A DNA stretch of 64,000 bases. Origin: an uncultured delta proteobacterium (GTDB lineage Bacteria; Myxococcota_A; Polyangia; Polyangiales; Polyangiaceae). This document shows positions 13,043 through 29,630 of this stretch, piece by piece; within the stretch, counting starts at the first letter, position 1; each line of letters begins with the position of its first letter. The notes under the pieces are model-generated. The model saw nothing but the letters and a program-made list of their open reading frames with translations. It had not been told where the DNA came from and searched no databases. Both the position numbers and the translations under genes were made by a program. The DNA lies in the NCBI GenBank assembly GCA_963850305.1, contig CAWKKR010000008.1, positions 1,600,001 to 1,664,000 of the forward strand, given 5' to 3'.

Positions 13043-13260
13043 AGGGGGTCTTGACCCCCGCGGCTCGCTTCGCGACCGCTCCCCCGCCGCCTTCGGCGGG
13101 CTCGCTTGGTTCAAGGGGGGCCTTGCCCCCCGCGGCTTGCTTCGCAACCGCTCCCCCCGCCGCCTTCGGCGTGCTCGCTTGGTTCAAGGGGGGCCTTGCC
13201 CCCCGCGGCTTGCTTCGCAACCGCTCCCCCCGCCGCCTTCGGCGGGCTCGCTCCGCGAGC
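13043..13260. repeat. Three tandem REP-like units of about 72 bp built from GC hairpins
   Basis: Units GGGGG-(TCTTGA/GCCTTGC)-CCCCC, GCGG..GCTTCGC..CCGC and CCCGCC-GCCTTC-GGCGGG start at about 13044, 13115 and 13188. Confidence 0.85.
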
Positions 13261-14459: not shown

Positions 14460-15160
14460 TCACGGCGTGGTGGTCGATCCACGCGCCCGACGGAGGTGAC
14501 CTCACGCCGTGTGAAGCGGGAATCACGGCCGACGGAGGTGTTCTCACGCTGTGTGAAGCGGGAATCACGGCCGACGGAGGTGTTCTCACGCTGTGTGAAG
14601 CGGGAATCACGGCCGACGGAGGCGTCCTCAACGGCGCGCGATCCACTTCTCACGGCCGACGGAGGTGACCTCACGCCGTGTGAAGCGGGAATCACGGCCG
14701 ACGGAGGTGTCCGCACGGCGCGTGAAGCGGGTATCGCGCTCGTGAGAACGCGTCCTCACGGCCGACGGAGGTGTCCTCGCGCCGTGTGAAGCGGGAATCA
14801 CGGCCGACGGAGGTGTCCGCACGGCGCGTGAAGCGGGTATCGCGGCCGTGAGAACGCGTCCTCACGGCCGACGGAGGCGTCCTCACGGCGCATGATCCAC
14901 TTATCACGGCCGACGGAGGTGTCGTCACGGCGCATGATCCACTCATCACGACCGACGGAGGTGTCCATCGCGACGCGTGATCCACTTATCACGGCGGACG
15001 GAGGTGTCGTCACGGCGCGTGATCCGCTTATCACGCCCGACGGAGGTGTCCTCACGGTGAGCGATCCACTTATCAGGACCGACGGAGGTGTCCTCACGGC
15101 GGACGGATATGTCCTCACGCTGCGTGATCCAGTTGTCGCGGCGGACGGACGCGTCCATCC
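14460..15160. repeat. Tandem array of about 33 units of 21 bp with 42-bp higher-order period
   Basis: Near-constant TCACGGCCGACGGAGGTGTCC mostly alternates with variable units such as TCACGCCGTGTGAAGCGGGAA and TCACGGCGCGTGATCCGCTTA. Confidence 0.9.
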
Positions 15161-15328: not shown

Positions 15329-16348
15329 ATGATCTTCCCCTGGGGCAAAGTGGGTCGTCGTTCACCAACCGAGTCCGTGGCGCGGATATACCGCGCGTTC
15401 CTGCGCCAGCGCACGTGGCCGCAGGCGGAGCTCGCGCGCGAGGTGGGCATCGGCGTTGCGGCGCTCCGGAAGCGGCTGGACGAGCTGACCACGCTCGGAA
15501 TGCCGCTCGAGCGGGAGGATGACCTACCGCAGGTCTACTGGAGCGTGCCCGCGACGTGGTTCCCCGACAGCGTCGCACTGGACAAGGACGAAGTCGCGGA
15601 TCTGCTACACGTGCTCTGGCACACGGCGCGGGGGCGGCGCCGCGACCGGCTCCTGCGCCTCGTGCTCGACGCTCGTCGTGATCGCGCGACCATCGCGGCG
15701 ACAGAATCCGCGATCGTGACGCACGAGGTATCGGAAGCGGAAGAGACGTTTCTCCCGATTTTGGAAGAGGCCATGACCGCGAACAGGCCCGTGCGCCTGC
15801 GATTCTACTCCACCGAGCGCGGCATCGTGGAGTCCAGGCACGCGTCGGTGCACCGCGTGGACGTCGGCCCCCCGACGCGACTCGTCGCGACGTGCCACCG
15901 GACGAACGAGCTCCGGTGGTTCCGCGTCGACAACATCGTCGATGTCAGCATCGACCGCGAAACGTCCTTCCGCGCCGCCAGCGACGAAGCTGTTCGTCGC
16001 TTCTGTGCGGACAGCATCGATGGGTTCAGGGGCGCTACCGAGACCGAGGAACACGCGTTCTTCGTGCGTAACCCCGAGGCGCGATGGGTCGCCAAGAATC
16101 TTCTCGCTCCGATGCGGGCAGTGGATGCCCCGGACGGAATTACGGTGTCCGTGACAACTGCCGGAGCGATGCGCGTCGCACGCTTCGTCGTCGGTCTTGG
16201 CGGCGCCGCTCGAGCGGAGAGCGCTCGACTCCGGACACTCGTCGAAGAGCTCGCACGGGGGGCGCTCCGCCGCTCGGCGCAACCTGGACGGCTCGCGAAG
16301 GCAGCCACGGGAATACCTGAACGACCGCGCAGACGCGCGAATAGATGA
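15329..16348 (+). CDS. WYL-domain transcriptional regulator (HTH-WYL-WCX)
   Basis: N-terminal HTH QAELAREVGIGVAALRKRLDEL; LVATCHRTNELRWFRVDNI WYL signature; may start at GTG 15350. Confidence 0.85.
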   Translation: MIFPWGKVGRRSPTESVARIYRAFLRQRTWPQAELAREVGIGVAALRKRLDELTTLGMPLEREDDLPQVYWSVPATWFPDSVALDKDEVADLLHVLWHTARGRRRDRLLRLVLDARRDRATIAATESAIVTHEVSEAEETFLPILEEAMTANRPVRLRFYSTERGIVESRHASVHRVDVGPPTRLVATCHRTNELRWFRVDNIVDVSIDRETSFRAASDEAVRRFCADSIDGFRGATETEEHAFFVRNPEARWVAKNLLAPMRAVDAPDGITVSVTTAGAMRVARFVVGLGGAARAESARLRTLVEELARGALRRSAQPGRLAKAATGIPERPRRRANR

Positions 16349-16424: not shown

Positions 16425-17006
16425 CTACCGCGGAGGCACCGGCGTGGCCCACAGCGCGCCAACATCGAACTCTATGGCCTCGAACGGCACGGCGCGCACT
16501 GGTTCGTCTCCGCGAAACGTTTCGAGCAGGATCCAGCGGTGGTTCTCCAGTGCATACGTCTCGATGATCCGGACCGCGGGATCCACGATCCACGCGAAGC
16601 TCACGCCGGCCCGCGCATAGAGAGGCATCTTGTCGGCGCGATCGAACGCTGCGCTGGACGGCGACACGATCTCGCATATCCAGTCAGGTGGGAGATCGAA
16701 CCAAGCCGTTCGCGGCAGCTCGGGCATGCGCTCCACTCGCCATCCCGCCCAGTCCGGAACGAGGACATCGCCTCCCGGCAGGTGAAGCTCTGGCTCGAGC
16801 AGAATCCACCATCCGCCGGGTCCCCCGCGGCCGCGCTGGAACGGCGGCGACAGCTCTCCGCCGAGAGCCGACGCTGCGGCAGTGTGCAACGGCCCCGGCC
16901 GAGGGCTCGTGACAAGCTCGCCGGCTACGATCTCGGCGACGAGGTTCGACGGTACTGCCGCGAGATCCGCGTAGGTGGCGCGACGTGTGGCTCGGACGGA
17001 CGACAC
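16425..17006 (-). CDS. Uma2-family (DUF820) putative endonuclease
   Basis: ATYADL..AEIVAGEL..PRP, GGWWILLEPE, VPDWAGWR, PDWICEIVSPS, KMPLYA. Confidence 0.9.
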   Translation of the reverse strand: MSSVRATRRATYADLAAVPSNLVAEIVAGELVTSPRPGPLHTAAASALGGELSPPFQRGRGGPGGWWILLEPELHLPGGDVLVPDWAGWRVERMPELPRTAWFDLPPDWICEIVSPSSAAFDRADKMPLYARAGVSFAWIVDPAVRIIETYALENHRWILLETFRGDEPVRAVPFEAIEFDVGALWATPVPPR

Positions 17007-17135
17007 GAAGACAGGGTAGCAGCTCAAGGGAGGCGAGCCGGACCAGAGGGAGAAACGACGCGACGCTCCCACGGGGCGTCGGCGTGGTGGGGGTTGACGG
17101 TCCAGTCCCTCGTTGCTAGCTTCCGCTCCCATAGA

Positions 17136-17176
17136 TTGCAGACCCCTTAGACCCCGGAGAGTCTTACGACTCAAAA
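17136..17176 (+). promoter_or_regulatory. Putative promoter (TTGCAG-N17-GAGTCT) containing the mini-array target and its TTT PAM
   Basis: -35-like TTGCAG at 17136-17141; reverse complement of 17152-17176 is TTT-TGAGTCGTAAGACTCTCCGGGG; the promoter assignment is inference. Confidence 0.5.
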
Positions 17177-17329
17177 CATCGGAAGCTGAAGGTTCACGTA
17201 GTCACTTCAGCTGGCGTGGATGCGATGCTGCTTCTGGAGTGGCGCCAGCTGAGCCTGCCAAGGCTCGCCACAGCAATCGTGAGGCGGATTGGGTTCGAGC
17301 GCCGCTAAAACTGTTGGTGCCCGCGGCGC

Positions 17330-17436
17330 TGCGGGGCGCTGCTCATCGCTCGGCCCGATTGAAGTTGAGTCGTGAGACTCGCCGGGGGCAACGTTCGGCG
17401 CTCTCCACCGCGTTCGCGCGGTGGCCTCGTTGAAGT
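17330..17436 (+). ncRNA. CRISPR mini-array (degenerate repeat, 35-nt spacer, near-consensus repeat); candidate CreA/CreR-like regulatory RNA
   Basis: 17401-17436 matches the repeat 34/36; 17330-17365 ends GGCCCGATTGAAGT versus consensus GGCCCCGTTGAAGC; spacer matches 17152-17173. Confidence 0.8.
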
Positions 17437-17538
17437 GGCTCCGAATTCCGAGCAATGGGCAGCGCCGCGCTGCGCTGCCGACGCTCCGCCTGATCGTTTT
17501 GACCTTCCGCGACCGTCCTCCCTTGGCAGAGGTGACAC

Positions 17539-20166
17539 GTGAGCATTGAATTCGCAGCGGCCTTTCACGCCCCCCTCACCGGCAACCCGAGCTTCCCGTG
17601 GCAGAGGGCGCTCTTCAGAGCGGTTCATCCGGGGCAATCGGGAGCATCGATTTCCCGAGGCATGCGACATCCCGACGGGACTCGGCAAGACGTCCGTCAT
17701 CGCAGTCTGGCTCCTCGCGCTGGCGCATCACGCCGTGAGCGAAAGTGCGCGCAGTTTCCCGCGCCGCCTCGTGTACGTCGTGAATCGACGTACCGTCATG
17801 GATCAATCGACGCGCGAGGCGGAACGTCTTCGCGAGAAGCTTTCAACGGCTGGCGAGCTGCGTGACGTAGCTCGACGCTGGCGTCACTCTGCTCTTACGA
17901 CCCGTCGGGCTCCCCTCTCGCAATCAGCACGCTGCGGGGTGAGTTCGCTGACAACGCCGAATGGCGCGACGATCCGGCCCGCCCCGCGGTCATCGTTGGT
18001 ACCGTCGACATGATCGGAAGCCGGTTGCTGTTCGCGGCTAGGGCCGGCTTCAAGTCCGTCCCCTTCATGCTGGTTTCCTCGGGCAGGACGTATTGCTGGT
18101 ACACGACGAGGCGCATCTCGAGCCGGCGTTTCAGGCGCTCATCGAGGAAGTTAGGCGAGAACAGAGTCATTTCCCGTGGGAGCGGGACCGTTTCGCTGTG
18201 ACGGCGTTGTCCGCGACGGCTCGCACCGGCACGAGCTCCTTTTCACTCACGGCCTCGGATCTCGAGAACGATGTCGTACGGAAGAGATTTTACGCGAAGA
18301 AGGGGCTCCGCATGCACCCTCTCGCGGAAGGCAAGAAGCTCCCCGATGCGCTCGCCGAGCTCGCGAGAAACCCCGACTTCGACGGGCAGGCCGTCGTCGT
18401 CTTCATGCGGCGGGTGAAGGACGTCGAAGCCGTCCGTGCGGCGCTGGATGGATCACCATCGTCCACGGCAGTCCTCACGGGAACGTTGCGCGGGTTCGAG
18501 CGCGACCAATTGGCACAGACCAATGGCGTGTTCGCTCGGTTCATGCCACCGCACGACCGAGATCCGAGGTGCACACCGCAGTCTGGCACGGTCTTTCTGA
18601 TCTCGACGTCCGCTGGTGAGGTGGGAGTCAACCTTTCTGCGGATCATCTCGTCTGTGACCTCGCTCCGTTCGACAGCATGGTTCAGCGCTTTGGGCGGGT
18701 GAATCGTTTCGGCCACGGAAAGGCCAGCATCGACATCGTCGTCGACGAGAGCGCGGCCAGGGGAGACGACATGTTCGCCTCCTCCATCCAGAAAACGCGG
18801 GCGCTTCTCGCGCGCCTTCCGAGAGTCGGCACGTTCCGAGCGGCTCGATGCGAGCCCCGCAGCTCTGGGTGAGCTCCCGTACCTCGAACGATTGGCGGCA
18901 TTCTCGCCTCAACCCGAGATCCCTCGCGCGAGCGATGTCCTGTTCGACGCCTGGGCGCTGACCTCCATCCGCGACCTTCCCGGCAGACCTCCCGTTGCTG
19001 ATTATCTTCACGGAGAGGAAGAGTGGGAGCCTCCAGAGACGTACATCGCTTGGCGGCGAGAGGTCGAGTACGTCACGGGAGACCTTCTTGATGAGCACCC
19101 CCCGGACGAACTCCTGGAAGACTATCCGCTCAAGGCACATGAGCTTTTGCATGACCGGACCGAGCGTGTCATCGAGCAGCTTGCCAAGATCGCCAACCGC
19201 TTCCCTGACCAAACGGTCTGGGTGCTCGAAGAGAACGGCAGCGTCCATCAAAAGGCACTGACTGTCTGGTTGAGCGGCGACAAGAAAACGGCCATCGACC
19301 GGCTAGCGCGCCGAACGGTGGTGTTACCGCCCCGCGTCGGAGGCTTAAAGGAAGGTCTGCTGAACGGCGCGAGCGCCTTCGACGAGCAGCAGCAGTACGA
19401 TGTCGCGGACGAGTGGGGGGACGAATCCGGCAAGCGTCGAGTTCGGCGAAACGATCCGGCTCCGCAAAGCGGTATGCGATTGGTTCGGAGCATCGTACCC
19501 CTGGGGGACCCTGATGAGTCGGATGCGGAGGGCCGCGCGCCAGTGCTCGAGAGCTGGTACTGGTTCGTGAAGCCGCGCTTCGCCGATGACGACGGTTCGC
19601 GGACGGCGCGCGCGTCGGAGTCGCTCGAGGCGCATCTGGGAAAGGCTGGAAGATCTGCTGCTGCGATTGCCGCCCGACTGTTGAATCCTGATGAATCGAC
19701 TGCAGTGCGGCTCGCCGCCGAATGGCACGATCTCGGCAAGAACCGGAACCTTTGGCAGCGCTCGATCGGGAACCTTGGAACGGAGGTCTTCGCGAAGTCT
19801 GGGCCGGAGATGACTCCGCGAAACATCACGCGCTACCGGCACGAATTCGGCTCTTTGATCGATATTCGGTTCAGAAAAGAGTTCGTTGCCCTGCCTCGCG
19901 AACAACAAGACCTGATCCTTCACCTCGTCGCGGCGCATCACGGACGCGCCCGCCCACACTTCCCACTGGAAGAATCGTTCGATCCGGAGCACACGGACAG
20001 TGTGGCGCTGGAGACCGCTCGATCGGTCCCTCGGAGGTTCGCCACGCTGCAGGCGCGATACGGTCGCTGGGGTCTGGCCTACCTGGAGTCGCTCGTCAGG
20101 GCAGCCGATGCGCTCGCGTCTCAGGACATCGGCGGGTCGGACGCGGGCAGAGTGAAGGGCCAATGA
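17539..20166 (+). CDS. cas3: Type I-G Cas3 helicase with C-terminal HD nuclease; at least 4 frameshifts in this sequence
   Basis: FPWQ, DIPTGLGKT, PRRLVYVVNRR, VGTVDMIGSRLLF, DEAH, QRFGRVNRFG, HDLGK, RHE, HHG, YGRWGLAYLE spread over different frames. Confidence 0.93.
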
Positions 20167-21047
20167 CCACCACCGGCCGATCCGAAGCATCGGTCCGCTG
20201 CGATCCGACCAATCCGGGCCAGTTTCTCGCTTGCTGCGGAATCCTGGAGCTTGCTCATCGCCGATTCGGCAGCGGAGCTACAGGCTGGTTCTCGACCGAC
20301 GGGCGGCGATTCTGCCTCGACGTGGGAGCGTCGAGCGATGCGCCGACACTACGGACGCTCCTGACAGAGCTGTGTTCCTGTGAGGTGACGAACACGATGA
20401 GCCCCGACGCGCTTCGCCGAAGGGCCGAGTTCGATGCGATGAACGGGCGCGAGAATCGAGGGCGCGGGAAGGGAAGACGAGAAGAAGGAGCTCGAATCAC
20501 TCTGGCGTGAATCACCTGTCATCTTCGGGGCACCATTCCACTTCACGGTCGACTGGCACCAGGACGACCGCGGTCGCGGTTCGACCTTCAAGACGTGGGC
20601 GGGGCAGCGGTCGATCATCGACATCGCCCGGGGTATGCACACCGCGGCGCGTGCCGCCCTCTCGGACATTGACACGATCGAGCAAATCCTCGGGGCAACG
20701 TCACGTGGCTCCGGGCTGCCGTTCAATTTCGACTCCGACCTGGGCGGTCAAGCGGCCCCGTTGGACGTGGGATTCAGCTTCGATCCTCTACCGACTATGT
20801 CCTTGGCCGCGCGTCCGGTGACCGAGCTCTGCGCGTTCATCGGGTTGCAACGCTTTCGCCCGGAGCGCGTCCGGAGGGAAATCGCTACCAGTATGCCCTG
20901 TGGTGGACCCCACTTCCCGCGGGCGTCGCCAGCGCGATGGCCTCGTGCTCTATCGATTCTCTGGAGCGCTCGCTCTTCGAGTTCCGGCTCTTGTACCGGA
21001 CCAAGTACCTGAAGAGTTTCTTGTCAGCAAAACCCGTCATGAGGTGA
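20163..21047 (+). CDS. csb3: Type I-G large subunit Cas8g (Csb3/GSU0052-like); at least 2 frameshifts
   Basis: DPTNPGQFLACCGILELA, KTWAGQ, LCAFIGLQRFRP, RTKYLKSF; lies between cas3 and cas7; ATGA overlap with cas3. Confidence 0.8.
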
Positions 21048-21050
21048 CCA

Positions 21051-22118
21051 GTGGCTACGAAATTGAATAGTTACGACACATTCCTGAGCGACGGAGGGCC
21101 AGCGGCACTCGTCATTCGCGAACACCTGATGAGCGTGGAAGGCGCGGACGGCGTCCTGTTTCCGGCGACGTTCGCGGCCAGCGAAGACAAGACTTTCAAG
21201 GGCGGCTACAACATCGACAATCTCGGGAATGGGAAGAACGTCTGCCTGGTCGATAGCGTCGGCTCGCAGGCGAATCGGTTGGAGCCCATCTTCTCCACCG
21301 ACCCATACAAGAAGCTCGTTCCGCAAGTGGTCGTCAAAGCGGGGCCGAGGGGTGTCAACCTGCTAGACGCAGGACACCGCGCCGCGGATGCGGTGATTCG
21401 ATGCTCGACCCTTCAGGAGGAACTGCAAGCTGCCTTCAGGGCGGCGATGCGCGGGGACGCCGCGCCGCTCGCCAAGATCGCACCGACGTCGCTCGTGTTC
21501 GGGGTGTGGGATTCTCGAGACACTCAAGCCAAGCTGCCCCGCCTGATCGCCTCGACGATACGAGCGTTCAATGTTCAGCGTCTTACTCGCTCGGCACAAT
21601 ACGTGCCGGCAACTGAGTACATAGCCGACGAGTTGCTGGAGGACACCGACGACAAGAAGATGAAGGACGCCTACTCTGCGAAGGGATTCGTGCACGTCCC
21701 GGCGTCTGCCACGCCGGGAGGCGTCGTGGCGGAGGCCGTCCGTCGGGATGCGTCGCTGCACCTTGCTGCGTTGCGGCTGCTCGGTGCAGGGAAGGATCCG
21801 GAAAAGTCGCTCGCGCTCAAGCGATACGTTTTTGGTCTCGCCTTGACCGCGTTCACGTTTTCGCCGGCGGGGTATCTCCGTCAGGGGTGCAATCTCGTAG
21901 CAGATCCTGAAAAAAAGCGTGACTTCAGGGTCGTCTTCAACGACGGACGGAGGGAACCAAGCGGCATCACCCACGATGATGCGATCTCCTATGCGGTGCT
22001 CGTTGCAGAGGCTTTCGGCGTCGGTGAGGATCGAGAGGTAGCTTTCGAGGTGCAACGCGCGAAAGCTGACCTCAGCGGAGAAAAAGTAAAGAAGCCAAAG
22101 AGCAAGGGAAAGCCGTGA
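21051..22118 (+). CDS. csb1: Type I-G Cas7 (Csb1)
   Basis: LFPATFA, VDSVGSQANRLE, HRAADA, PTSLVFGVWDS, YLRQGCNL. Confidence 0.93.
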   Translation: MATKLNSYDTFLSDGGPAALVIREHLMSVEGADGVLFPATFAASEDKTFKGGYNIDNLGNGKNVCLVDSVGSQANRLEPIFSTDPYKKLVPQVVVKAGPRGVNLLDAGHRAADAVIRCSTLQEELQAAFRAAMRGDAAPLAKIAPTSLVFGVWDSRDTQAKLPRLIASTIRAFNVQRLTRSAQYVPATEYIADELLEDTDDKKMKDAYSAKGFVHVPASATPGGVVAEAVRRDASLHLAALRLLGAGKDPEKSLALKRYVFGLALTAFTFSPAGYLRQGCNLVADPEKKRDFRVVFNDGRREPSGITHDDAISYAVLVAEAFGVGEDREVAFEVQRAKADLSGEKVKKPKSKGKP

Positions 22119-23727
22119 CATCGGGTGCCCAGCTTTGCGTGACGGTGCGCTTTCTGCAGCCCACGTTTCACGGGCGCGCGGAGGGGGGGCGAGGCGAATG
22201 GCCGCCATCCCCCCTTCGCCTGTTCCAAGCACTCGTGGCCGCAGCGGCGCGCTTGCAGCCGACTGGCTTCGACAATCGAACCCGGGAAGCGTTTCGGTGG
22301 CTGGAGCGGTGCGCGGCCCCGACGATCGTCGCGCCCGTCGCACAGGAGACGACTGGGATGAGGCTCTCGGTGCCGAACAATGCGATGGACATCGTCGCGC
22401 GCGCGTGGTGTCGAGGAAACGATTCGGAGACGGGTGACGCGGACCCTCGGACGCATCGGACCATGAAGACCGTGCGTCCGTACTGGCTTCACGGCGCGCG
22501 GGTCCGCTACATCTGGTCGTCGAACGAGGTGTCGCTAACCGCGGACGTAGCCGATCGCGTGGTTCGTGTTGCTCGCCATCTGACGCATCTTGGCTGGGGC
22601 ATGGATCAGGTGGTGGGTGATGCCTCGGTCATGAGCGCCGTCGAGCCTCCGGCAGCCGATGAGGACGAATGGCGCCCGTCGAGCGACATCTCTAACAGTG
22701 GTCTCCGGACTCCCGTTAGAGGCACCTTGGACGACCTCGAGGAGCATCACCACGCCTTCATGAATCGAATTGCGCCCGCCGGCTTTTCGGCGCCACCTCC
22801 CATCTCCGCATACAAGGTATTCGAGTATCGACGAGCATCCGATCCAAAGGCACGTCCGGTCGCGGTGTTTTCCATTCTCCGTCCCGGTGGCATGGCCTTT
22901 CGTGCGTTCGATCCTGCACGGAAGGCGCTCACGGTAGCTGGAATGCTTCGCCACACCGCCGAGGAGGCAGCCATTGCTTCCGGGTGGCCCGCTGCCAAGG
23001 TAGCTGGCTTCGTTATGGGGCACAGTGAACGCGGAGTGTCGACGCCAGTCGGTATCGAGCGTTTCGCGTATCTACCCCTGCCCAGCATCGAGTCCCGCGG
23101 TGGCGGCAAACAAACCGTCGGAAGCATCCGCCGCGTTGCCATCACTTCGTTCGCTGAAGACGTGAGTGCTGAGGTGGCGTGGGCGCGTCGCGGAATCTCC
23201 GGACGAGACCTCTTCGACGAGGACACGGGCGAGGCGGTTGCGTCCCTCGTGCTTCTCCAGAACGCCGACGCGGCGACGCAGCGTTACTTCGTCCCGGCGA
23301 GCACCTGGACTAGTGTCACTCCCGTTGTCCTTCCCGGATACGACGATCCGGATCACCTCCGCCAGAAGGCAAGCCGGAGCACGACGCCTGATCAACGGAA
23401 ACGATACCTGGAACGCCTGTCGGGCAGGATTGATCACCTCATCCGAAAGGCGCTTCGTCAATTTGGACTATCCGAGCTCTTGGCACAGCATGCCGACCTC
23501 GAATGGCGGAAGGTCGGGTTCCTCGCCGGGGTCGGGCACGCGGATCGATACGGAGTCCCCGATCATCTGCGCAGGTTTTTAGGTACCACGTGCGACTCCG
23601 GTTTCATGATTCCATGGGCAAGCCGATCTCGGTGCCGGGTCCGTTGTGTGTTGGCGGCGGTCGATACGCCGGAGTCGGCCTTTTCGTGGGAGACGATGGC
23701 CTGACGTCACCGTCGACGAGCGCATGA
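22115..23727 (+). CDS. csb2: Type I-G Cas5/Cas6 fusion (Csb2); frameshift near 23580
   Basis: EWPPSPLRLFQALVA, HLGWG, YLPLPSI, WTSVTPVVLPG; G-rich loop GPLCVGGGRYAGVGLF in the shifted frame ending 23727. Confidence 0.9.
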
Positions 23728-23845: not shown

Positions 23846-24056
23846 CTACGCGGCACGCAGCGCCTCGCGCATCACGCGATCGCGAATCGAGCCCTTCAGC
23901 GCGTCCGCCGTCAGCAGGTCCACGTGTTTGCCGAGCCACTGCTCGAGCTGGTCGCGAAGGCGACTCAGGGCGAACATCCCGACGGACGTCTCGAACTCGA
24001 CGAGCAGATCGACGTCGCTGTTCGGACCCGCTTCGTCACGCGCCACCGAACGATAC
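23846..24056 (-). pseudogene. 5'-truncated minimal nucleotidyltransferase (MNT antitoxin) without HEPN partner
   Basis: SVARDEAGPNSDVDLLVEFE..VDLLT..RDRVMREA; the usual FG before SVAR is absent. Confidence 0.7.
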
Positions 24057-24164
24057 CGCGGACGGTTACTCGAGTCAGGTGGAGGACATCGCATGACAAC
24101 AAACAGCGCCGAACTCGGGCTTTCCGAGGAGCCGGCGGTCCCCGAGGCCCGCGCGAAACCCCTA

Positions 24165-24192
24165 CTCTCCACCGCGTTCGCGCGGTGGCCCC
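24165..24192 (+). CRISPR. Orphan CRISPR repeat lacking its last 8 nt
   Basis: CTCTCCACCGCGTTCGCGCGGTGGCCCC is identical to repeat positions 1-28. Confidence 0.85.
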
Positions 24193-24283
24193 ATGACCCT
24201 GAAAAAGTCAGGTCAGGGGTGGCCCCATGACCCTGCAAAATTCGCCCGGCTCATGGACCCATGAGAGCAAACCGGCAGCCGTC

Positions 24284-24856
24284 TCACCCCCAAATCCGCC
24301 CCAACCTCAGCTCTATCGCGTCGAACGGCTCCGCTCTCACGACGTCCTCCTCGCCATGAAGCCCGACCACCGACCAGCGTCCGCTTTCGAGGCGGAGCAC
24401 TTCCAGCGTTTTGGCGAGTGGATCGATCAGCCAGGCGTGTGGCACTCCAACCTGAGCGTAGAGGGGGAGCTTCTTGATGCGATCGAAGCGCGCGGTCGAC
24501 GGCGACAGGATTCCGCAAACCCAATTCGGGCAGATCTCGATGAACGGGCCGTTGGGGGCGATTGGCATCCGCTCGCGGCGCCACCCGGCGAGGTCGGGCA
24601 CGACGATGTTGCCGTCGAGGTGGACCTCCGGTTCGTCGAGGATCCACCATCCGCCGGGTCCACCATCGCCGAACTGGAACGGCGGCAGGAGGCTTCCGCC
24701 GACCGCCGAGCCCGCGACGGAGTGGCGCCCGGCTGGGCGTGGGCTCGCGTGCAGCTCGCCGCCGACGATCTCCCCGATGACGTCGTCGCCGAGCGCGACG
24801 AGATCGTCGTACGTGGCGTTGCGTCGAGCGGGTTCCACCGCGCGGAAGGATATCAC
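24284..24856 (-). CDS. Uma2-family putative endonuclease
   Basis: ATYDDL, GGWWILDEPE, VPDLAGWRR, KLPLYA; CGILSPS where paralogues have CE(I/V)LS. Confidence 0.9.
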   Translation of the reverse strand: MISFRAVEPARRNATYDDLVALGDDVIGEIVGGELHASPRPAGRHSVAGSAVGGSLLPPFQFGDGGPGGWWILDEPEVHLDGNIVVPDLAGWRRERMPIAPNGPFIEICPNWVCGILSPSTARFDRIKKLPLYAQVGVPHAWLIDPLAKTLEVLRLESGRWSVVGLHGEEDVVRAEPFDAIELRLGRIWG

Positions 24857-24861
24857 CTTTC

Positions 24862-26817
24862 ATGACCGAGAGCCCTGCGTCTAGTTTGCCGGCCGCTCCG
24901 TCTCCCCCACCCGAAGAGGTGGCCCGCGCGAAACACCTCCCGCTCCCCCTTCTGAAGACCGACAGCCCCGCGCTCGTCCCCGCGCGGATGATCAACGAGC
25001 TCTTCTACTGCGAGCGGCTCATGTATCTCGAGTGGGCGCAGAGCGAGTTCGCCGACAACGCGTTCACCGTCGATGGTCGATCGGTCCATCGACGCGCCGA
25101 CGAAGCCAAACCCCTGCCGGAGCCGGCACGGCGCTCGTCGAAGAGGAAGGATTCGGCGAAGGCTGACACGAACGACGGCGAGGCCGACACGGGTGAATCT
25201 GCTCCGTCAGTCGACGGCCCTCCCTATACTGCACGGTCCGTCTGGCTCTCGTCAGAGCGACTGGGCATCACCGCGAAGATCGACGTCGTGGAAGGGGAGG
25301 GCGGGCGCGTCGTGCCCATCGAGTACAAGCGAGGGAGCAAGCCTGAAATACCCGAGGGCGCGTACCTGCCCGAACGCGCTCAGTTGTGCGCGCAAGTACT
25401 GCTCCTCCGAGACCACGGATACCAATGCGACGAGGCCGCCATCTACTTCGCCGCGGATCGGCGGCGCGTGTCGATCGCGATCGACGAGGCGCTCGTGGCG
25501 CTCACGCTCGACGCCGTTCGGCGCGCCCGAGACGTTGTGCAGGCTGGCGAACTACCTCCGCCCCTCGTCGACAGTCCGAAATGCGACGGCTGCTCGCTCG
25601 TCGGGATTTGCCTCCCCGACGAAACGAACCTCCTCCGGGCGCTGGAGGGAGTCGAGGCGCCGCAGGAAGCGCCCGAAGATCCCGAAGCGCCCGTCCTGGA
25701 GCCGGCGCTCGTCGAGTTGTACGGGCCGCTCGAGAAGGATCCGTGGGACCTTGCCGGGCCGGAGCCTCAACCAATTCCGGCGGAGCTCCGTCGATTGCAT
25801 CCGGCGCGCGATGACAAGCTACCGGTCTACGTTCAGGCGCAGGGCGGGCGGATAACGCTCAGCGGAGAACGTCTCTCGATCTGGACCAAGGACGACGGCG
25901 CGATCGAAGCTCGGCTCGGAAACACTTCCCAGATTTCGCTCTTCGGCAATATTCAGATCACTCCGCAGGCGCTTCGCACCGTGCTCGAGCGTGGGATCCC
26001 GGTTTCACTCTTTACTTACGGGGGATGGTTCATCGGGCGCGCCGTGGGGCACGACTCGAAGAACGTCGAGCTGCGCCTTGCGCAGTACGCGGGCGCGACC
26101 GATCCCGCCACGTCGCTCCGATTGGCGCGAGGATTCGTCGTATCGAAGATCTTGAACTGTCGAACCCTGCTGCGTCGCAACCACGAGAAAGCCAGCGCGG
26201 TCGTGCTCTCGGAACTCAAGCAGCTTGCGCGCAAAGCAGCGGAAGCAGATTCGCTGGGCGAGCTCCTGGGACTGGAGGGCACCGCGGCGCGGGCCTACTT
26301 CTCGGAGTTCACGGGCATGTTGAAGCCGGAGGATAGCGAGACCGCGGTGTTCGACCTGGACGGACGGAATCGGCGACCACCCAAGGACCCGATCAATGCG
26401 CTCCTGTCGTTCGCCTATTCCCTGCTCTCCAAGGACTTCGCGCTGACCCTGCACGCGGTCGGGCTCGATCCGCTCCTCGGCTTCTACCACCAACCGCGAT
26501 TCGGCCGCCCCGCGCTCGCGCTCGACATGATGGAGGAGTTCCGGCCACTGGTTGCCGACTCCGTGGTGATCGGCGTCGTGAACAACGGCGTCGTTCGGGC
26601 CAGCGACTTCGTTCGGTCCCCAGCTGGCACGGCGCTGAAGCCGGCGGCGCGCCGGCGTCTGATCCTCGCCTATGAACGGCGCATGGACCAGCTCACGACG
26701 CACCCGACGTTCGGCTACCGAATCAGCTACCGACGCGTGCTCGAGGTTCAGGCAAGATTGCTCGGCCGCATGCTGCTCGGCGAATTGAAAGAATACCCGG
26801 CGTTCCGCACGCGGTGA
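24862..26817 (+). CDS. cas1: Cas4-Cas1 fusion
   Basis: YCER, KIDVVE, PIEYKRG, KCDGCSLVGIC (Cas4 Fe-S/RecB); LLGLEGTAARAYF, RRPPKDPINALLSFAY, GFYH, LDMMEEFRP (Cas1). Confidence 0.96.
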   Translation: MTESPASSLPAAPSPPPEEVARAKHLPLPLLKTDSPALVPARMINELFYCERLMYLEWAQSEFADNAFTVDGRSVHRRADEAKPLPEPARRSSKRKDSAKADTNDGEADTGESAPSVDGPPYTARSVWLSSERLGITAKIDVVEGEGGRVVPIEYKRGSKPEIPEGAYLPERAQLCAQVLLLRDHGYQCDEAAIYFAADRRRVSIAIDEALVALTLDAVRRARDVVQAGELPPPLVDSPKCDGCSLVGICLPDETNLLRALEGVEAPQEAPEDPEAPVLEPALVELYGPLEKDPWDLAGPEPQPIPAELRRLHPARDDKLPVYVQAQGGRITLSGERLSIWTKDDGAIEARLGNTSQISLFGNIQITPQALRTVLERGIPVSLFTYGGWFIGRAVGHDSKNVELRLAQYAGATDPATSLRLARGFVVSKILNCRTLLRRNHEKASAVVLSELKQLARKAAEADSLGELLGLEGTAARAYFSEFTGMLKPEDSETAVFDLDGRNRRPPKDPINALLSFAYSLLSKDFALTLHAVGLDPLLGFYHQPRFGRPALALDMMEEFRPLVADSVVIGVVNNGVVRASDFVRSPAGTALKPAARRRLILAYERRMDQLTTHPTFGYRISYRRVLEVQARLLGRMLLGELKEYPAFRTR

Positions 26818-26832
26818 CGTCTCGGAGGAACG

Positions 26833-27123
26833 ATGCGCCAAACGTACATCGTCAGCTACGACATCTCGAACCCGAAGCGCTTGCGCAAGGTGTTCCAGCT
26901 CATGCGCGGGTACGGCGATCATCTTCAGCTTTCTGTCTTTCAGTGCGAGCTGAACCACCGAGAGCTCATCGAGCTTCGCGCGCGTCTGTCCGACATCATC
27001 CACATTGCAGAAGACCAGGTGATGTTCGTGGATGTCGGCCCCGTCGAGGGCCGCGGCAGCACATCCATCTCGGCGATCGGGCGTCCCTACCTGTACCCTG
27101 AGCGCCACGCGATCGTCGCGTGA
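26833..27123 (+). CDS. cas2: Cas2
   Basis: YIVSYDISNPKRLRKV, HLQLSVFQC, DQV; GGAGG ribosome site. Confidence 0.96.
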   Translation: MRQTYIVSYDISNPKRLRKVFQLMRGYGDHLQLSVFQCELNHRELIELRARLSDIIHIAEDQVMFVDVGPVEGRGSTSISAIGRPYLYPERHAIVA

Positions 27124-27355: not shown

Positions 27356-28438
27356 CTCTCCACCGCGTTCGCGCGGTGGCCCCGTTGAAGCCGCAGCGAT
27401 ACTTGCGGTATGCAGTTCTCGCGATCCGTCGCTCTCCACCGCGTTCGCGCGGTGGCCCCGTTGAAGCGACCGCTGCGTCGGTGCCGATCGATCGGCGATC
27501 CATTCGCTCTCCACCGCGTTCGCGCGGTGGCCCCGTTGAAGCTCGCATCGCAGCCGTCGTCGACTTCGAGGATCGATGCTGCGCGCTCTCCACCGCGTTC
27601 GCGCGGTGGCCCCGTTGAAGCCTGCGCCGACGACACGTCTTGCAGCGTGCGTCGACATCCTCTCCACCGCGTTCGCGCGGTGGCCCCGTTGAAGCCGAGT
27701 CCGAGCGCGACGCTGGCTCGGCAGAGATGTCGACTCTCCACCGCGTTCGCGCGGTGGCCCCGTTGAAGCCTACGTGCCGCCGCCGATCCATTCCGCGATG
27801 TCCGACGAAGCTACTCTCCACCGCGTTCGCGCGGTGGCCCCGTTGAAGCCGACGCTTGTCATGCAGCGTCGGCTCCGCGGCCTCCGGCCGCCTCTCCACC
27901 GCGTTCGCGCGGTGGCCCCGTTGAAGCCACACTGAGCCAGCAGTTGGTCCGCGTCTGCGCGAGCGCTCTCCACCGCGTTCGCGCGGTGGCCCCGTTGAAG
28001 CTCAGAGGCACGCGAGCTCGATCGTGGCCTGAGCATGCAGCTCTCCACCGCGTTCGCGCGGTGGCCCCGTTGAAGCGTCGGCGACGTGCGCGAGATGCGT
28101 GCGCCATCACGGCTCTCCACCGCGTTCGCGCGGTGGCCCCGTTGAAGCCCGCCAGCCGATGTCCGCAGCGATCGACGGCGCCTGACTCTCCACCGCGTTC
28201 GCGCGGTGGCCCCGTTGAAGCGTGTAGCTCGCGTGCGCGAGCAGCCGCTCGCGAGGATCTCGCCTCTCCACCGCGTTCGCGCGGTGGCCCCGTTGAAGCC
28301 CGGACGCTCTGCGCCGCGTCGGCGGTCGCTGACGTACTCTCCACCGCGTTCGCGCGGTGGCCCCGTTGAAGCTCCACATGCCGGTCTGGGCGACGTGCTC
28401 GTCACATCTGCCTCTCCACCGCGTTCGCGCGGTGGCCC
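27356..28438 (+). CRISPR. CRISPR array: 14 full repeats CTCTCCACCGCGTTCGCGCGGTGGCCCCGTTGAAGC, one truncated trailer repeat, 14 spacers of 36-44 nt
   Basis: Repeats start at 27356, 27432, 27507, 27586, 27660, 27734, 27814, 27892, 27966, 28041, 28113, 28186, 28264, 28337 and 28412 (27 nt only). Confidence 0.99.
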
Positions 28439-28564
28439 TACGCCGCCATCGTCGTAGCCTGTGCCCCCAAGACGGCGGTGTGGACGGAATTTCTTGCCGT
28501 GCGACATGTGCAGCGTGAGCCGGTGGGCTCGTCCGCAACGGACGCACACAATCCGGAGGCACGC

Positions 28565-29405
28565 ATGCTCACTCTGCACGACAAGATGGAACAGGATCTC
28601 GAACTTGCCGGCTACGCCAAGCGAACCCGTCAGGCGTATCTCGCATCCATCCGCGACTTGGAGCGGTTCCACGGCCGCTCGGGGGACCGATTGGGTCAGG
28701 AAGAGATCCGGCGTTGGGTTCGCCACCTCACCGGCCAGGGACGAAGTCCGGAGCGGCTCCGCAAGCACTTTGCGGCGCTCAAGTTCCTCTACGCTCGCAC
28801 CCTGGGACGCCCTGCGCTGACTGCCTTTCTCGCTTGGCCCACTGCGCGGCAACGAACGCCCGTCGTTCTCAGTCCTCACGAAGTCGTCGCACTGTTGGGC
28901 GCGATCCGGTCGCCGAAGTACCGTGTGTTCTTTTCGTTGGTCTACGGCACCGGAATGCGCCTGTCCGAAGCGTGTCGACTCGAAACATCCGACATCGACG
29001 CGCAACGCGGCGTGATTCACGTGCGCCACGCGAAGGGTGGGCGCGACCGCTTCGTGATGCTGTCGCCGCAGCTCCTTGGGTCGTTGAGGGCGTACTGGCG
29101 TTTCGCGCGGCCGCCCGCGCCGTACCTGTTCACCGCTCGAACCGGGAGGCCGATCCATCCCGAGGTTGCCCGCAACGCCATGACCGCCGCCGCGAAGGCG
29201 GCCGGCCTGGCAAAGCGAGTGACGCCTCACGTACTTGCGCCACAGCTTCGCCACACATCTCCTCGAGCGGGGTGTCGACATTCGAGTCATCCAGGTGCTG
29301 CTCGGGCACATGAGTATTCGGACCACGGCGCGTTACACGCGCGTGTCGACCGGGATGATCGCGGACACCGTCAGCCCCTTGGATCTGCTCCCTCGCACCG
29401 GATAG
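28565..29405 (+). mobile_element. Tyrosine recombinase/integrase with N-terminal SAM-like domain; frameshift near 29236
   Basis: YGTGMRLSE, KGGRDR, TPHVL then [22 protein letters not shown] in the shifted frame. Confidence 0.88.
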
Positions 29406-29476
29406 CAGCCGGCCGATTGCGTCCTTGGTTCGTCCGAGCCCACCCGCGGGAGCCCAACGCAATGAACATGAACGTA

Positions 29477-29630
29477 GCCTCTACGACGTCGAGGTCCCGA
29501 CCATCAACTACCACCTGAAGAAGGTGTTCGAGGACAAGGAGTTCACCATCAAGGGCTTCGCGATGGACGACGAGCGCCCGAAGCGCGGCGGCTCGGTCCT
29601 GAGCGATCGCTACTTCGAAGACGCCCTAGG
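29477..29630 (+). pseudogene. Internally deleted RhuM-family remnant
   Basis: LYDVEVPTINYHLKKVFED joined directly to EFTIKGFAMDDER..GGSVLSDRYFED, two motifs normally far apart in RhuM. Confidence 0.65.

Follow-up and report, generated by a model that had tools for sequence, protein, structure and literature searches.

Introduction

Regulatory guides that resemble CRISPR RNAs (crRNAs) explain how CRISPR systems sense the level of their own effector and respond to anti-CRISPR attack. Such guides have been studied experimentally in subtypes I-B, I-E, I-F and V-A, not in I-G. Here we describe a candidate for subtype I-G, a degenerate mini-CRISPR at 17330–17436 of a 64,000-nt stretch of DNA (the window, whose positions are used throughout) from an uncultured delta proteobacterium of the Polyangiaceae (GenBank GCA_963850305.1, contig CAWKKR010000008.1, positions 1,600,001–1,664,000). 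The unit lies 100 nt upstream of cas3g, and its spacer partially matches a nearby site flanked by a protospacer-adjacent motif (PAM). One other species, represented by a Polyangiaceae metagenome-assembled genome of the same genus (G222), has the same module at the same place, and there spacer and target have changed together. We think that the unit probably yields a regulatory guide of the CreR/CreA type that serves plain autoregulation.

Several described systems come close, as reported in the accessible parts of the sources cited. CreR RNAs made from degenerate mini-CRISPRs were shown experimentally in I-B, I-E and V-A, and a manual search turned up creA-like elements in other subtypes, I-U (as I-G used to be called) among them (Liu et al., 10.1101/2023.03.10.532045). 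Partial seed pairing leads to Cascade-dependent repression without cleavage, and in the CreTA system of Halobacterium hubeiense (I-B) the self-targeted promoter drives creT and creA as one transcript, and its PAM lies on the complementary strand (PMC8501985). The toxin there is the RNA of a six-codon mini open reading frame (ORF) with tandem rare codons and a strong start, and the seed comprises nt 1–5 and 7–11. In CrePA, from an Acinetobacter I-F system, a protein-coding gene stands under a CreA-type guide and the toxin is a phage-derived protein that halts cell division (Shu et al., 10.1101/2024.01.05.574328). In I-F1, Cascade and a mini-array RNA repress and Cas3 is dispensable (PMC10120712); this validated mini-array lies between cas3 and cas8. 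The same work tabulates 235 I-G loci, 4% of them with a mini-array (Shmakov et al. 2023, PMC10120712), and in the parts of it available to us I-G loci are only counted. For I-G itself, the PAM is TTN, Csb2 cuts 4 nt 3' of the hairpin base to leave an 8-nt handle, and Cas3 is an integral subunit of the studied effector, needed for stable DNA binding (PMC9638904).

The window unit resembles CreR in that a degenerate repeat, a spacer and a repeat stand inside a cas locus, with a partial PAM-proximal match near a candidate cas promoter; the expected outcome would likewise be Cascade-dependent autorepression without cleavage. It differs from CreR in its longer pairing (22–28 nt), in a target separated from the guide by a small ORF, and in a predicted long-range helix that encloses it. 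With CreTA it shares the order of self-targeted putative promoter region, short ORF and guide, the PAM on the complementary strand, two repeats degenerate in different ways and a stem-loop tied to the short ORF (PMC8501985). Unlike CreTA, the ORF has 30–33 codons, apparent protein-level selection and a weak start, and the apparently broken cas genes speak against toxicity. Like the class 1 regulatory mini-arrays of PMC10120712, the unit is a stand-alone repeat pair near cas3 with a partial, PAM-flanked self-target in a putative promoter region and tolerated mismatches. It is like CrePA in that a protein-coding gene would stand under a CreA-type guide; the window peptide is without detectable relatives.

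Our literature search for an experimental study of an I-G regulatory guide found none, only the I-U mention and the table count. The idea of such guides is already described for I-G computationally, not experimentally. What may be new is a helix in the register of a lost repeat hairpin, a conserved peptide ORF, and 22–28 bp of pairing in a subtype whose effector carries Cas3.

Anatomy of the mini-CRISPR

The unit, its target and the block that follows it are:

17152–17173, minus strand: protospacer-like target, 20/22 identical to spacer nt 1–22, with an internal palindrome GAGTC-N4-GACTC
17174–17176, minus strand: PAM, 5'-TTT (TTC in G222); TTN for I-G is from PMC9638904
17330–17365, plus strand: degenerate repeat, made up of block B (17335–17353), linker CCCG (17354–17357) and handle ATTGAAGT (17358–17365)
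17366–17400, plus strand: spacer-like guide of 35 nt, nt 1–22 of which pair with the target
17401–17436, plus strand: near-consensus repeat (34/36) with an intact 8-bp hairpin
17448–17466, plus strand: block B', reverse-complementary to B, with which it would form 17 Watson-Crick pairs and one G-U over 19 positions

An earlier reading of this DNA, made from its letters and without database searches (the sequence-only reading), had proposed a self-targeting mini-array here. Its letters and coordinates for the near-perfect repeat, the handle and the spacer are all as it gave them, and its distance of 10 kb from the main array measures 9.9 kb. Compared with the main-array repeat (CTCTCCACCGCGTTCGCGCGGTGGCCCCGTTGAAGC), the degenerate copy is identical at 17/36 positions overall and, by hand count, at 11/14 over the last 14. 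Two ectopic, degenerate repeats thus flank one spacer-like segment inside the cas locus and outside the array.

A repeat search of the window recovers spacer and target as an inverted pair, 17152–17174 and 17365–17387, identical at 21/23. Counted from spacer nt 1, this is the 20/22 minus-strand match beside TTT that had been reported, with mismatches at positions 9 and 16. The statement that the match then stops is essentially true: only 4 of the last 13 positions agree, which brings the whole spacer to 24/35. The self-match is therefore partial, PAM-proximal and next to the PAM of the subtype in the window (20/22, TTT) as in G222 (17/20 and 23/28, TTC); the identity of the PAM is taken from the literature on a studied I-G system and not from this system's own spacers. 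The TTN PAM and the 8-nt handle that the sequence-only reading named for I-G are both in print (PMC9638904, in the parts available). The target lies ~190 nt upstream of the guide.

Specificity of the match

When the spacer was shuffled 2000 times, the best match of a 22-nt prefix in the surrounding 2 kb was 17/22, with none above. Thirteen array spacers tested in the same way scored 13–17 of 22, and none of the 14 array spacers matched its own genome with up to 6 mismatches. With up to 3 mismatches allowed, the 22-mers of spacer and target occur nowhere else in the 6.26-Mb genome. The core 15-mer, with up to 1 mismatch, is found only at the two sites in the genome and not upstream of the neighbouring WYL regulator gene. 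Blocks B and B' are each single-copy in the genome.

We also scanned I-G stretches for isolated handle-like sites and scored the self-matches at them. Among 78 such sites in 26 stretches, the window (18/20, TTT) and G222 (17/20, TTC) stand out, and the rest score at most 16; none of 42 further sites in 7 more loci exceeds 16. Over the 33 I-G stretches scanned, one of which (L036, unpublished genome G396) contributes only a negative, there was no further convincing self-target. The PAM-flanked, seed-anchored partial match is highly non-random.

The sequence-only reading would have been refuted by a 22-bp pair that recurs genome-wide as the ends of a miniature mobile element. The pair does not recur: it is single-copy, as are the 15-mer, the 22-mers, B and B' in 6.26 Mb, and a miniature mobile element is rejected.

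Conservation and covariation in a second species

Searching 401 genomes of the order with the Cas7g protein gave a match in 26. When the DNA of the region was compared with 383 genomes of the family, G222 was the only one besides the window's own genome to share more than the bare CRISPR repeat. In G222 the module stands upstream of an intact cas3g (an 875-aa ORF), and cas8g2 is also intact. The order of parts is a promoter-like block, target, hairpin, small ORF, degenerate repeat with handle ATTGAAGT, 35-nt spacer and solo repeat.

At positions 3, 8, 14 and 20 the base differs between the two species, and spacer and target have made the same change. Under a crude independence model this covariation, in two species only, has p ~8e-4; positions 3 and 14 also pair inside the internal palindrome, so the four positions are not fully independent. 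The PAM of G222 is TTC, again TTN. Pairing begins at spacer nt 1 in both species, and the last handle base is unmatched in G222, which gives the pairing a sharp boundary. It fades past nt 22 in the window and past nt 28 in G222, with 24/35 identities in each. G222 has a mismatch at spacer position 6, a position that is unpaired in other type I effectors, according to the parts of the sources at hand (PMC10120712, PMC8501985). Of the 36 positions of the G222 solo repeat, 5 differ from the repeat of the G222 array, and two of these form a compensatory pair (A-U to G-C) that keeps the stem. Judged by sequence comparison, selection acting on a guide together with its DNA target would predict this pattern. 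Spacer-target covariation in related I-G loci, which the sequence-only reading had named as a check, is thus seen at four positions in one other species.

Wider searches added no relatives. A scan of genome contigs in the collection for the degenerate-repeat-plus-handle pattern found only the G222 contig and a chance hit inside a Clostridia coding region; in metagenome contigs the pattern gave two hits, a contig that is the same as G222 throughout the region and a chance one that lies between ribosomal-protein-like genes. A covariance model of the 146-nt structure, run over 483 kb of loci, scored the training pair at 168–173 bits and everything else at 44 or less, the stronger ones lying in array-bearing stretches. 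Rfam gave one meaningless microRNA match, whose 21 bits fall below the gathering score of 168. Within what was searched, the family is confined to two species of one genus.

A different two-unit mini-array was seen between the WYL gene and cas3g of another genome (G166, L033 12968–13075, plus strand, opposite to cas3g). Its first unit keeps the handle GTTGAAGC with a changed hairpin, the second keeps the hairpin (27/36) and has lost the handle, and its fold shows strong structure (z = -3.1). A comparison with 5 other genomes gave no match to the region. As a self-targeting guide this mini-array was rejected, the best target (14/20, TTA) being within background.

A predicted long-range helix around the guide

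Block B corresponds to positions 6–24 of the degenerate repeat, and B' begins 12 nt downstream of the second repeat. Both are 100% conserved in G222, where the mean column identity of the region is 80%. The predicted fold of 17330–17472 has a 19–22-bp helix that encloses handle, spacer and repeat, with z = -5.3 (G222, z = -4.75) and 0/200 shuffles as stable. Of the 45 pairs in the consensus structure, 3 are compensatory, and one of these three extends helix B/B'. In each species the fold prediction also joins the 3' part of the spacer to the solo repeat's 3' end, using different sequences.

The sequence-only reading had given the degenerate copy a short hairpin in the consensus register, 4 nt from the handle. 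Fold prediction does not bear this out: the repeat has no local hairpin in the canonical register, and the one predicted ends ~16 nt short of the handle. The long-range helix has its last pair, G17353-C17448, at repeat position 24, the canonical stem end, 4 nt before the handle. Since Csb2 of the studied I-G system cuts 4 nt past the hairpin base, we infer that the helix replaces the lost hairpin; on this structural model it would probably stand in for it in setting the 5' end of the guide. Alternatively, RNase III could cut the helix in place of Csb2. If real, a helix in the register of a lost hairpin would be a new way to make a guide 5' handle and could inform compact guide cassettes.

A motif CTCCGA-NN-TCCGAG (17437–17447), right after the solo repeat and before B', is conserved in G222 and is not explained by the B/B' helix.

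Candidate promoter and direction of transcription

The best promoter candidate lies upstream of the target:

17094–17122, plus strand: TTGACG, 17 nt, TAGCTT, 8/12 by hand count, within a block GGGGG(T/C)TTGACGG conserved in G222

In G222 the counterpart of TAGCTT is CAGTGT, 17 nt past TTGACG. No sigma-54-type -24/-12 spacing was seen by eye. The promoter that the sequence-only reading had placed under the target, TTGCAG-N17-GAGTCT (17136–17164), is rejected: it agrees with the sigma-70 consensus at 5/12 by hand count, is not conserved in G222 and is absent from the sigma-70 scan.

If TTGACG at 17094 marks the promoter, transcription would start near 17129 and the target would lie at about +23 to +45. 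With this start the guide would pair with the non-template strand. A guide on the non-template strand is the effective roadblock orientation in Cascade- and dCas9-based silencing. No intrinsic terminator was seen on the plus strand before cas3g, so transcription from this promoter may run through small ORF and guide into the cas operon, giving a negative feedback loop. In single-strand folds of both species the target and spacer arms are predicted to pair. This pairing and helix B/B' interleave and are alternatives.

State of cas3g and cas8g2

The two effector genes that follow the unit are apparently broken in the window genome:

17539–20166, plus strand: cas3g, an apparent pseudogene in the assembly, with frame changes near 17617, 17873, 18034–18056 and 18832
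20163–21047, plus strand: cas8g2 (GSU0052 family), apparently frameshifted at ~20454 and ~20874

Against the intact G222 orthologues they carry six frame-changing indels, which form three frame-restoring pairs (+1/-1, -1/+1, +1/-1) and leave the total length of cas3g-cas8g2 unchanged at 3512 nt in both genomes. The shifted stretches, which appear as separate tblastn matches, still encode homologous protein at 76–79% identity in the shifted frames. None of the frame changes is at a homopolymer. The genome has 557 open frames of at least 500 codons with high GC content at third codon positions, so rampant indel error is unlikely. We read the six changes as real pseudogenes rather than local assembly errors. 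Cas8g is needed for stable DNA binding, as is Cas3 in the studied I-G system (PMC9638904, accessible parts). With cas3g and cas8g2 read as frameshifted, the regulatory loop is probably idle in the window genome and functional in G222.

Proposed mechanism

From the anatomy, the conserved pairing and the predicted fold, we infer a unit that is transcribed, processed and used as follows. The crRNA-like guide would consist of the 8-nt handle AUUGAAGU, the 35-nt spacer and the repeat hairpin, its 5' end being set with the help of helix B/B'. Loaded into the I-G effector, it would pair through its PAM-proximal 22–28 nt with the TTN-flanked site at 17152–17173, and the complex would bind without licensing cleavage because the PAM-distal third cannot pair. 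The bound complex would form a transcriptional block just downstream of the conserved TTGACG block. The repressed unit would probably be a leader transcript with the small ORF, the guide and the cas3g-cas8g2-cas7g-csb2 operon. The outcome would be negative feedback of the CreR type, in a layout like the co-transcribed PcreTA unit of H. hubeiense.

That a guide mechanism operates in some form, as regulator or as antitoxin, we hold to be very likely. Plain autoregulation is its likelier form and is, taken by itself, the probable function of 17330–17436; control of a toxin is the less likely form.

Several points weigh against autoregulation. Comparative support comes from two genomes of one genus, and the element did not turn up in the other 381 family genomes searched. 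The sigma-70 scan found no site of at least 9/12 in either species, so that the putative promoter is read from one conserved TTGACG block. A start upstream of the target would put target and spacer in one transcript, where pairing in cis could, on the predicted folds, compete with guide maturation. The degenerate repeat is without a canonical-register hairpin of its own, so processing by Csb2 is not assured. Target and spacer hold a palindrome that a dimeric DNA-binding protein could also read. By analogy with the studied I-G effector, of which Cas3 is an integral part, binding without cutting would be less obviously safe than in I-B, I-E or I-F. Finally, cas3g and cas8g2 are apparently broken, so the circuit cannot work as described in the window genome. 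Because Cas3 is part of the I-G effector and aids DNA binding, a conserved self-target of 22–28 bp offers a natural setting in which to ask how much pairing marks the line between binding and cutting.

The small ORF and a possible toxin module

Between target and guide lie:

17184–17212, plus strand: hairpin AGCTGAAG / CTTCAGCT, immediately ahead of the small ORF; the hairpin at this place in G222 has a different sequence
17216–17308, plus strand: small ORF of 30 codons with a GTG start (MDAMLLLEWRQLSLPRLATAIVRRIGFERR); in G222, 33 codons with an ATG start

The alignment of the two ORFs has 17 invariant columns, including W-R and A-I-x-R-R-I-G-F, and 7 of the 12 conserved residues compared have synonymous codon differences. 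Indels within the ORF are of 6 and 3 nt, and those outside it are of other lengths. By these sequence features the ORF looks translated and selected at the protein level. The peptide is cationic and in part hydrophobic. Searched as a profile against 1.84 billion representatives, it gave 8 matches, all to proteins of 149–1010 residues with 4–10 short stretches each, which we read as low-complexity; the peptide has no detectable relatives.

The ORF is the centre of the strongest rival explanation, an addiction or abortive-infection pair like CreTA or CrePA. The 30–33-residue peptide or its mRNA would be a toxin that the Cascade-guide complex silences and that is released when the effector is lost or inhibited. 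Its position is exactly that of creT in co-transcribed creT-creA units (PMC8501985, in the parts available), and CreA-controlled protein toxins are known from CrePA (10.1101/2024.01.05.574328, likewise). The conservation of the ORF in both species, with in-frame indels only, fits a toxin too, as do the conserved hairpin ahead of the start codon, a conserved tandem Arg-Arg (AGG-CGG in the window, CGA-CGA in G222) and the 7 of 30 codons that are used fewer than 10 times per 1000 in the window genome. The tandem pairs AGG-CGG and CGA-CGA would be read by different tRNAs, which argues against the sequestering of one rare tRNA. CreT toxins, as the accessible text of PMC8501985 describes them, need strong initiation, use tandem rare codons for one scarce tRNA and have a stem-loop after the mini-ORF, whereas the window ORF starts with GTG, has no Shine-Dalgarno motif at normal spacing and has its conserved hairpin before it. 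The lack of peptide relatives in the profile search also counts against a toxin. An addiction module should make its effector genes impossible to lose, and a potent toxin left unsilenced should be selected against; barring assembly errors, cas8g2 and cas3g are frameshifted in the window genome while the ORF and the promoter-side region are intact. We consider the toxin module unlikely, though better placed than any of the explanations below.

A more specific version joins both novelties: a split-hairpin guide, a structured RNA built for its purpose rather than an ordinary worn mini-array, with B/B' in the stem register and excision by Csb2 or RNase III, together with a cationic peptide, encoded by the same transcript, whose release would follow from inhibition of the I-G effector. 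We regard this combination as speculative. If true, it would be a peptide-toxin and guide module for a subtype with Cas3 as an integral effector subunit, and it would raise the question of how the resident nuclease stays silent on a 22–28-bp self-match.

Other explanations

Instead, the 22-nt arms could form an RNA stem that acts in cis within the cas operon leader, encloses the small ORF and serves processing or stability, with no role for Cascade. Single-strand folds of both species do pair the arms, a stem would also lead one to expect covariation, and at position 9 a G-U pair would take the place of the mismatch. Of the six mismatches that the two species have between them, however, five are no wobble pairs, and the arms interleave with the better-supported B/B' (in the order A, B, A', B'), so that both cannot form nested. 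The fold of the G222 region is barely more stable than shuffles (z = -1.75). A stem also leaves unexplained why pairing begins exactly at the handle-spacer junction, why the flank is TTN in both species and why a conserved repeat hairpin follows 35 nt on. We consider it improbable.

Slightly further down stands the idea that both copies serve as operators, where a dimeric protein such as the adjacent WYL regulator binds DNA by reading GAGTC-N4-GACTC, one copy overlapping an old spacer. Both copies have the same 5+4+5 palindrome, the change at positions 3 and 14 is symmetric in both G222 copies, as with a shifted regulator specificity, and the WYL gene is conserved next door. Identity nevertheless runs at least 7 nt past the palindrome, on one side only and in inverted orientation, and extends to covariation at position 20; its boundary is the handle, and the TTN flank is kept. 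The genome holds no third copy of the core 15-mer, including upstream of the WYL gene, and the generic palindrome occurs 14 times genome-wide where ~7 are expected, with no clustering at the locus beyond the two copies. Operators, too, are an improbable explanation.

Self-targeting spacers are often linked with decayed systems. Array debris, meaning the last unit of a lost second array whose spacer came by accident from neighbouring DNA, with cas3g and cas8g2 inactivated as an escape from autoimmunity, would suit the apparently broken genes and the other scars at the locus (the truncated repeat at 24165–24192 and the inserted gene pair), but it is hardly credible given that G222 keeps the unit alongside intact cas3g and cas8g2, that spacer and target covary with the same partial pairing in both species, that the structured B/B' is perfectly conserved and that a fresh self-spacer would match over its full length and not at 24/35.

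The surrounding locus

The locus is a type I-G CRISPR-Cas system, as the sequence-only reading had it, with Cas3g, Cas8g2, Csb1/Cas7g, Csb2, Cas4-Cas1 and Cas2 identified. The signature set used was cas3g (a helicase with a C-terminal HD domain), cas8g2/csx17, csb1/cas7g, csb2 (a Cas5-Cas6 fusion), a cas4-cas1 fusion and cas2. Pfam matches in the window are GSU0053, GSU0054, Cas1 with Cas4, and Cas2. NCBIfam identifies Csb1/Cas7g and Csb2 on window proteins and Cas3g and Cas8g2 on the G222 orthologues; TIGR04106 matches in the window at 20470–20880. Besides cas3g and cas8g2, the features are:

15329–16348, plus strand: WYL-domain regulator gene (Pfam WYL, HTH_PafC), upstream of the module, open
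16425 to ~17027, minus strand: Uma2-family gene, between the WYL gene and the module
21051–22118, plus strand: csb1/cas7g, open
22115–23704, plus strand: csb2, open
24862–26817, plus strand: cas4-cas1 fusion, open
26833–27123, plus strand: cas2, open
27356–28447, plus strand: main CRISPR array, 14 identical 36-nt repeats and a worn terminal repeat, with spacers of 36–44 nt

The WYL gene has a 72% identical orthologue at the same position in G222. G222 is without a Uma2 gene between the WYL gene and the module, which makes the left Uma2 copy an insertion specific to the window genome. Two minus-strand Uma2 (putative endonuclease) paralogues, 16425–17027 and 24284–24856, bracket cas3g-csb2 and are 72% identical over 145 nt. 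The right copy belongs to an inserted minus-strand pair between csb2 and cas4-cas1, its partner being a nucleotidyltransferase gene (23846–24238). Also between csb2 and cas4-cas1 is a truncated CRISPR repeat, 24165–24192, which has the first 28 nt without the handle; it is followed by a 26-nt duplication (24184–24209 and 24218–24243, 92% identical). Truncated repeat and duplication, beside the inserted pair, look as if an insertion into a repeat had left a scar.

Upstream of the WYL gene are tandem repeats, one with a 42-nt unit in ~16 copies and several sub-periods (14487–15156) and one with a 73-nt unit in 2.9 copies (13044–13252). They have no spacers and hence are not CRISPR-like. At the other end of the locus, a tyrosine recombinase/integrase gene (28478–29518) begins ~30 nt past the worn terminal repeat of the array.

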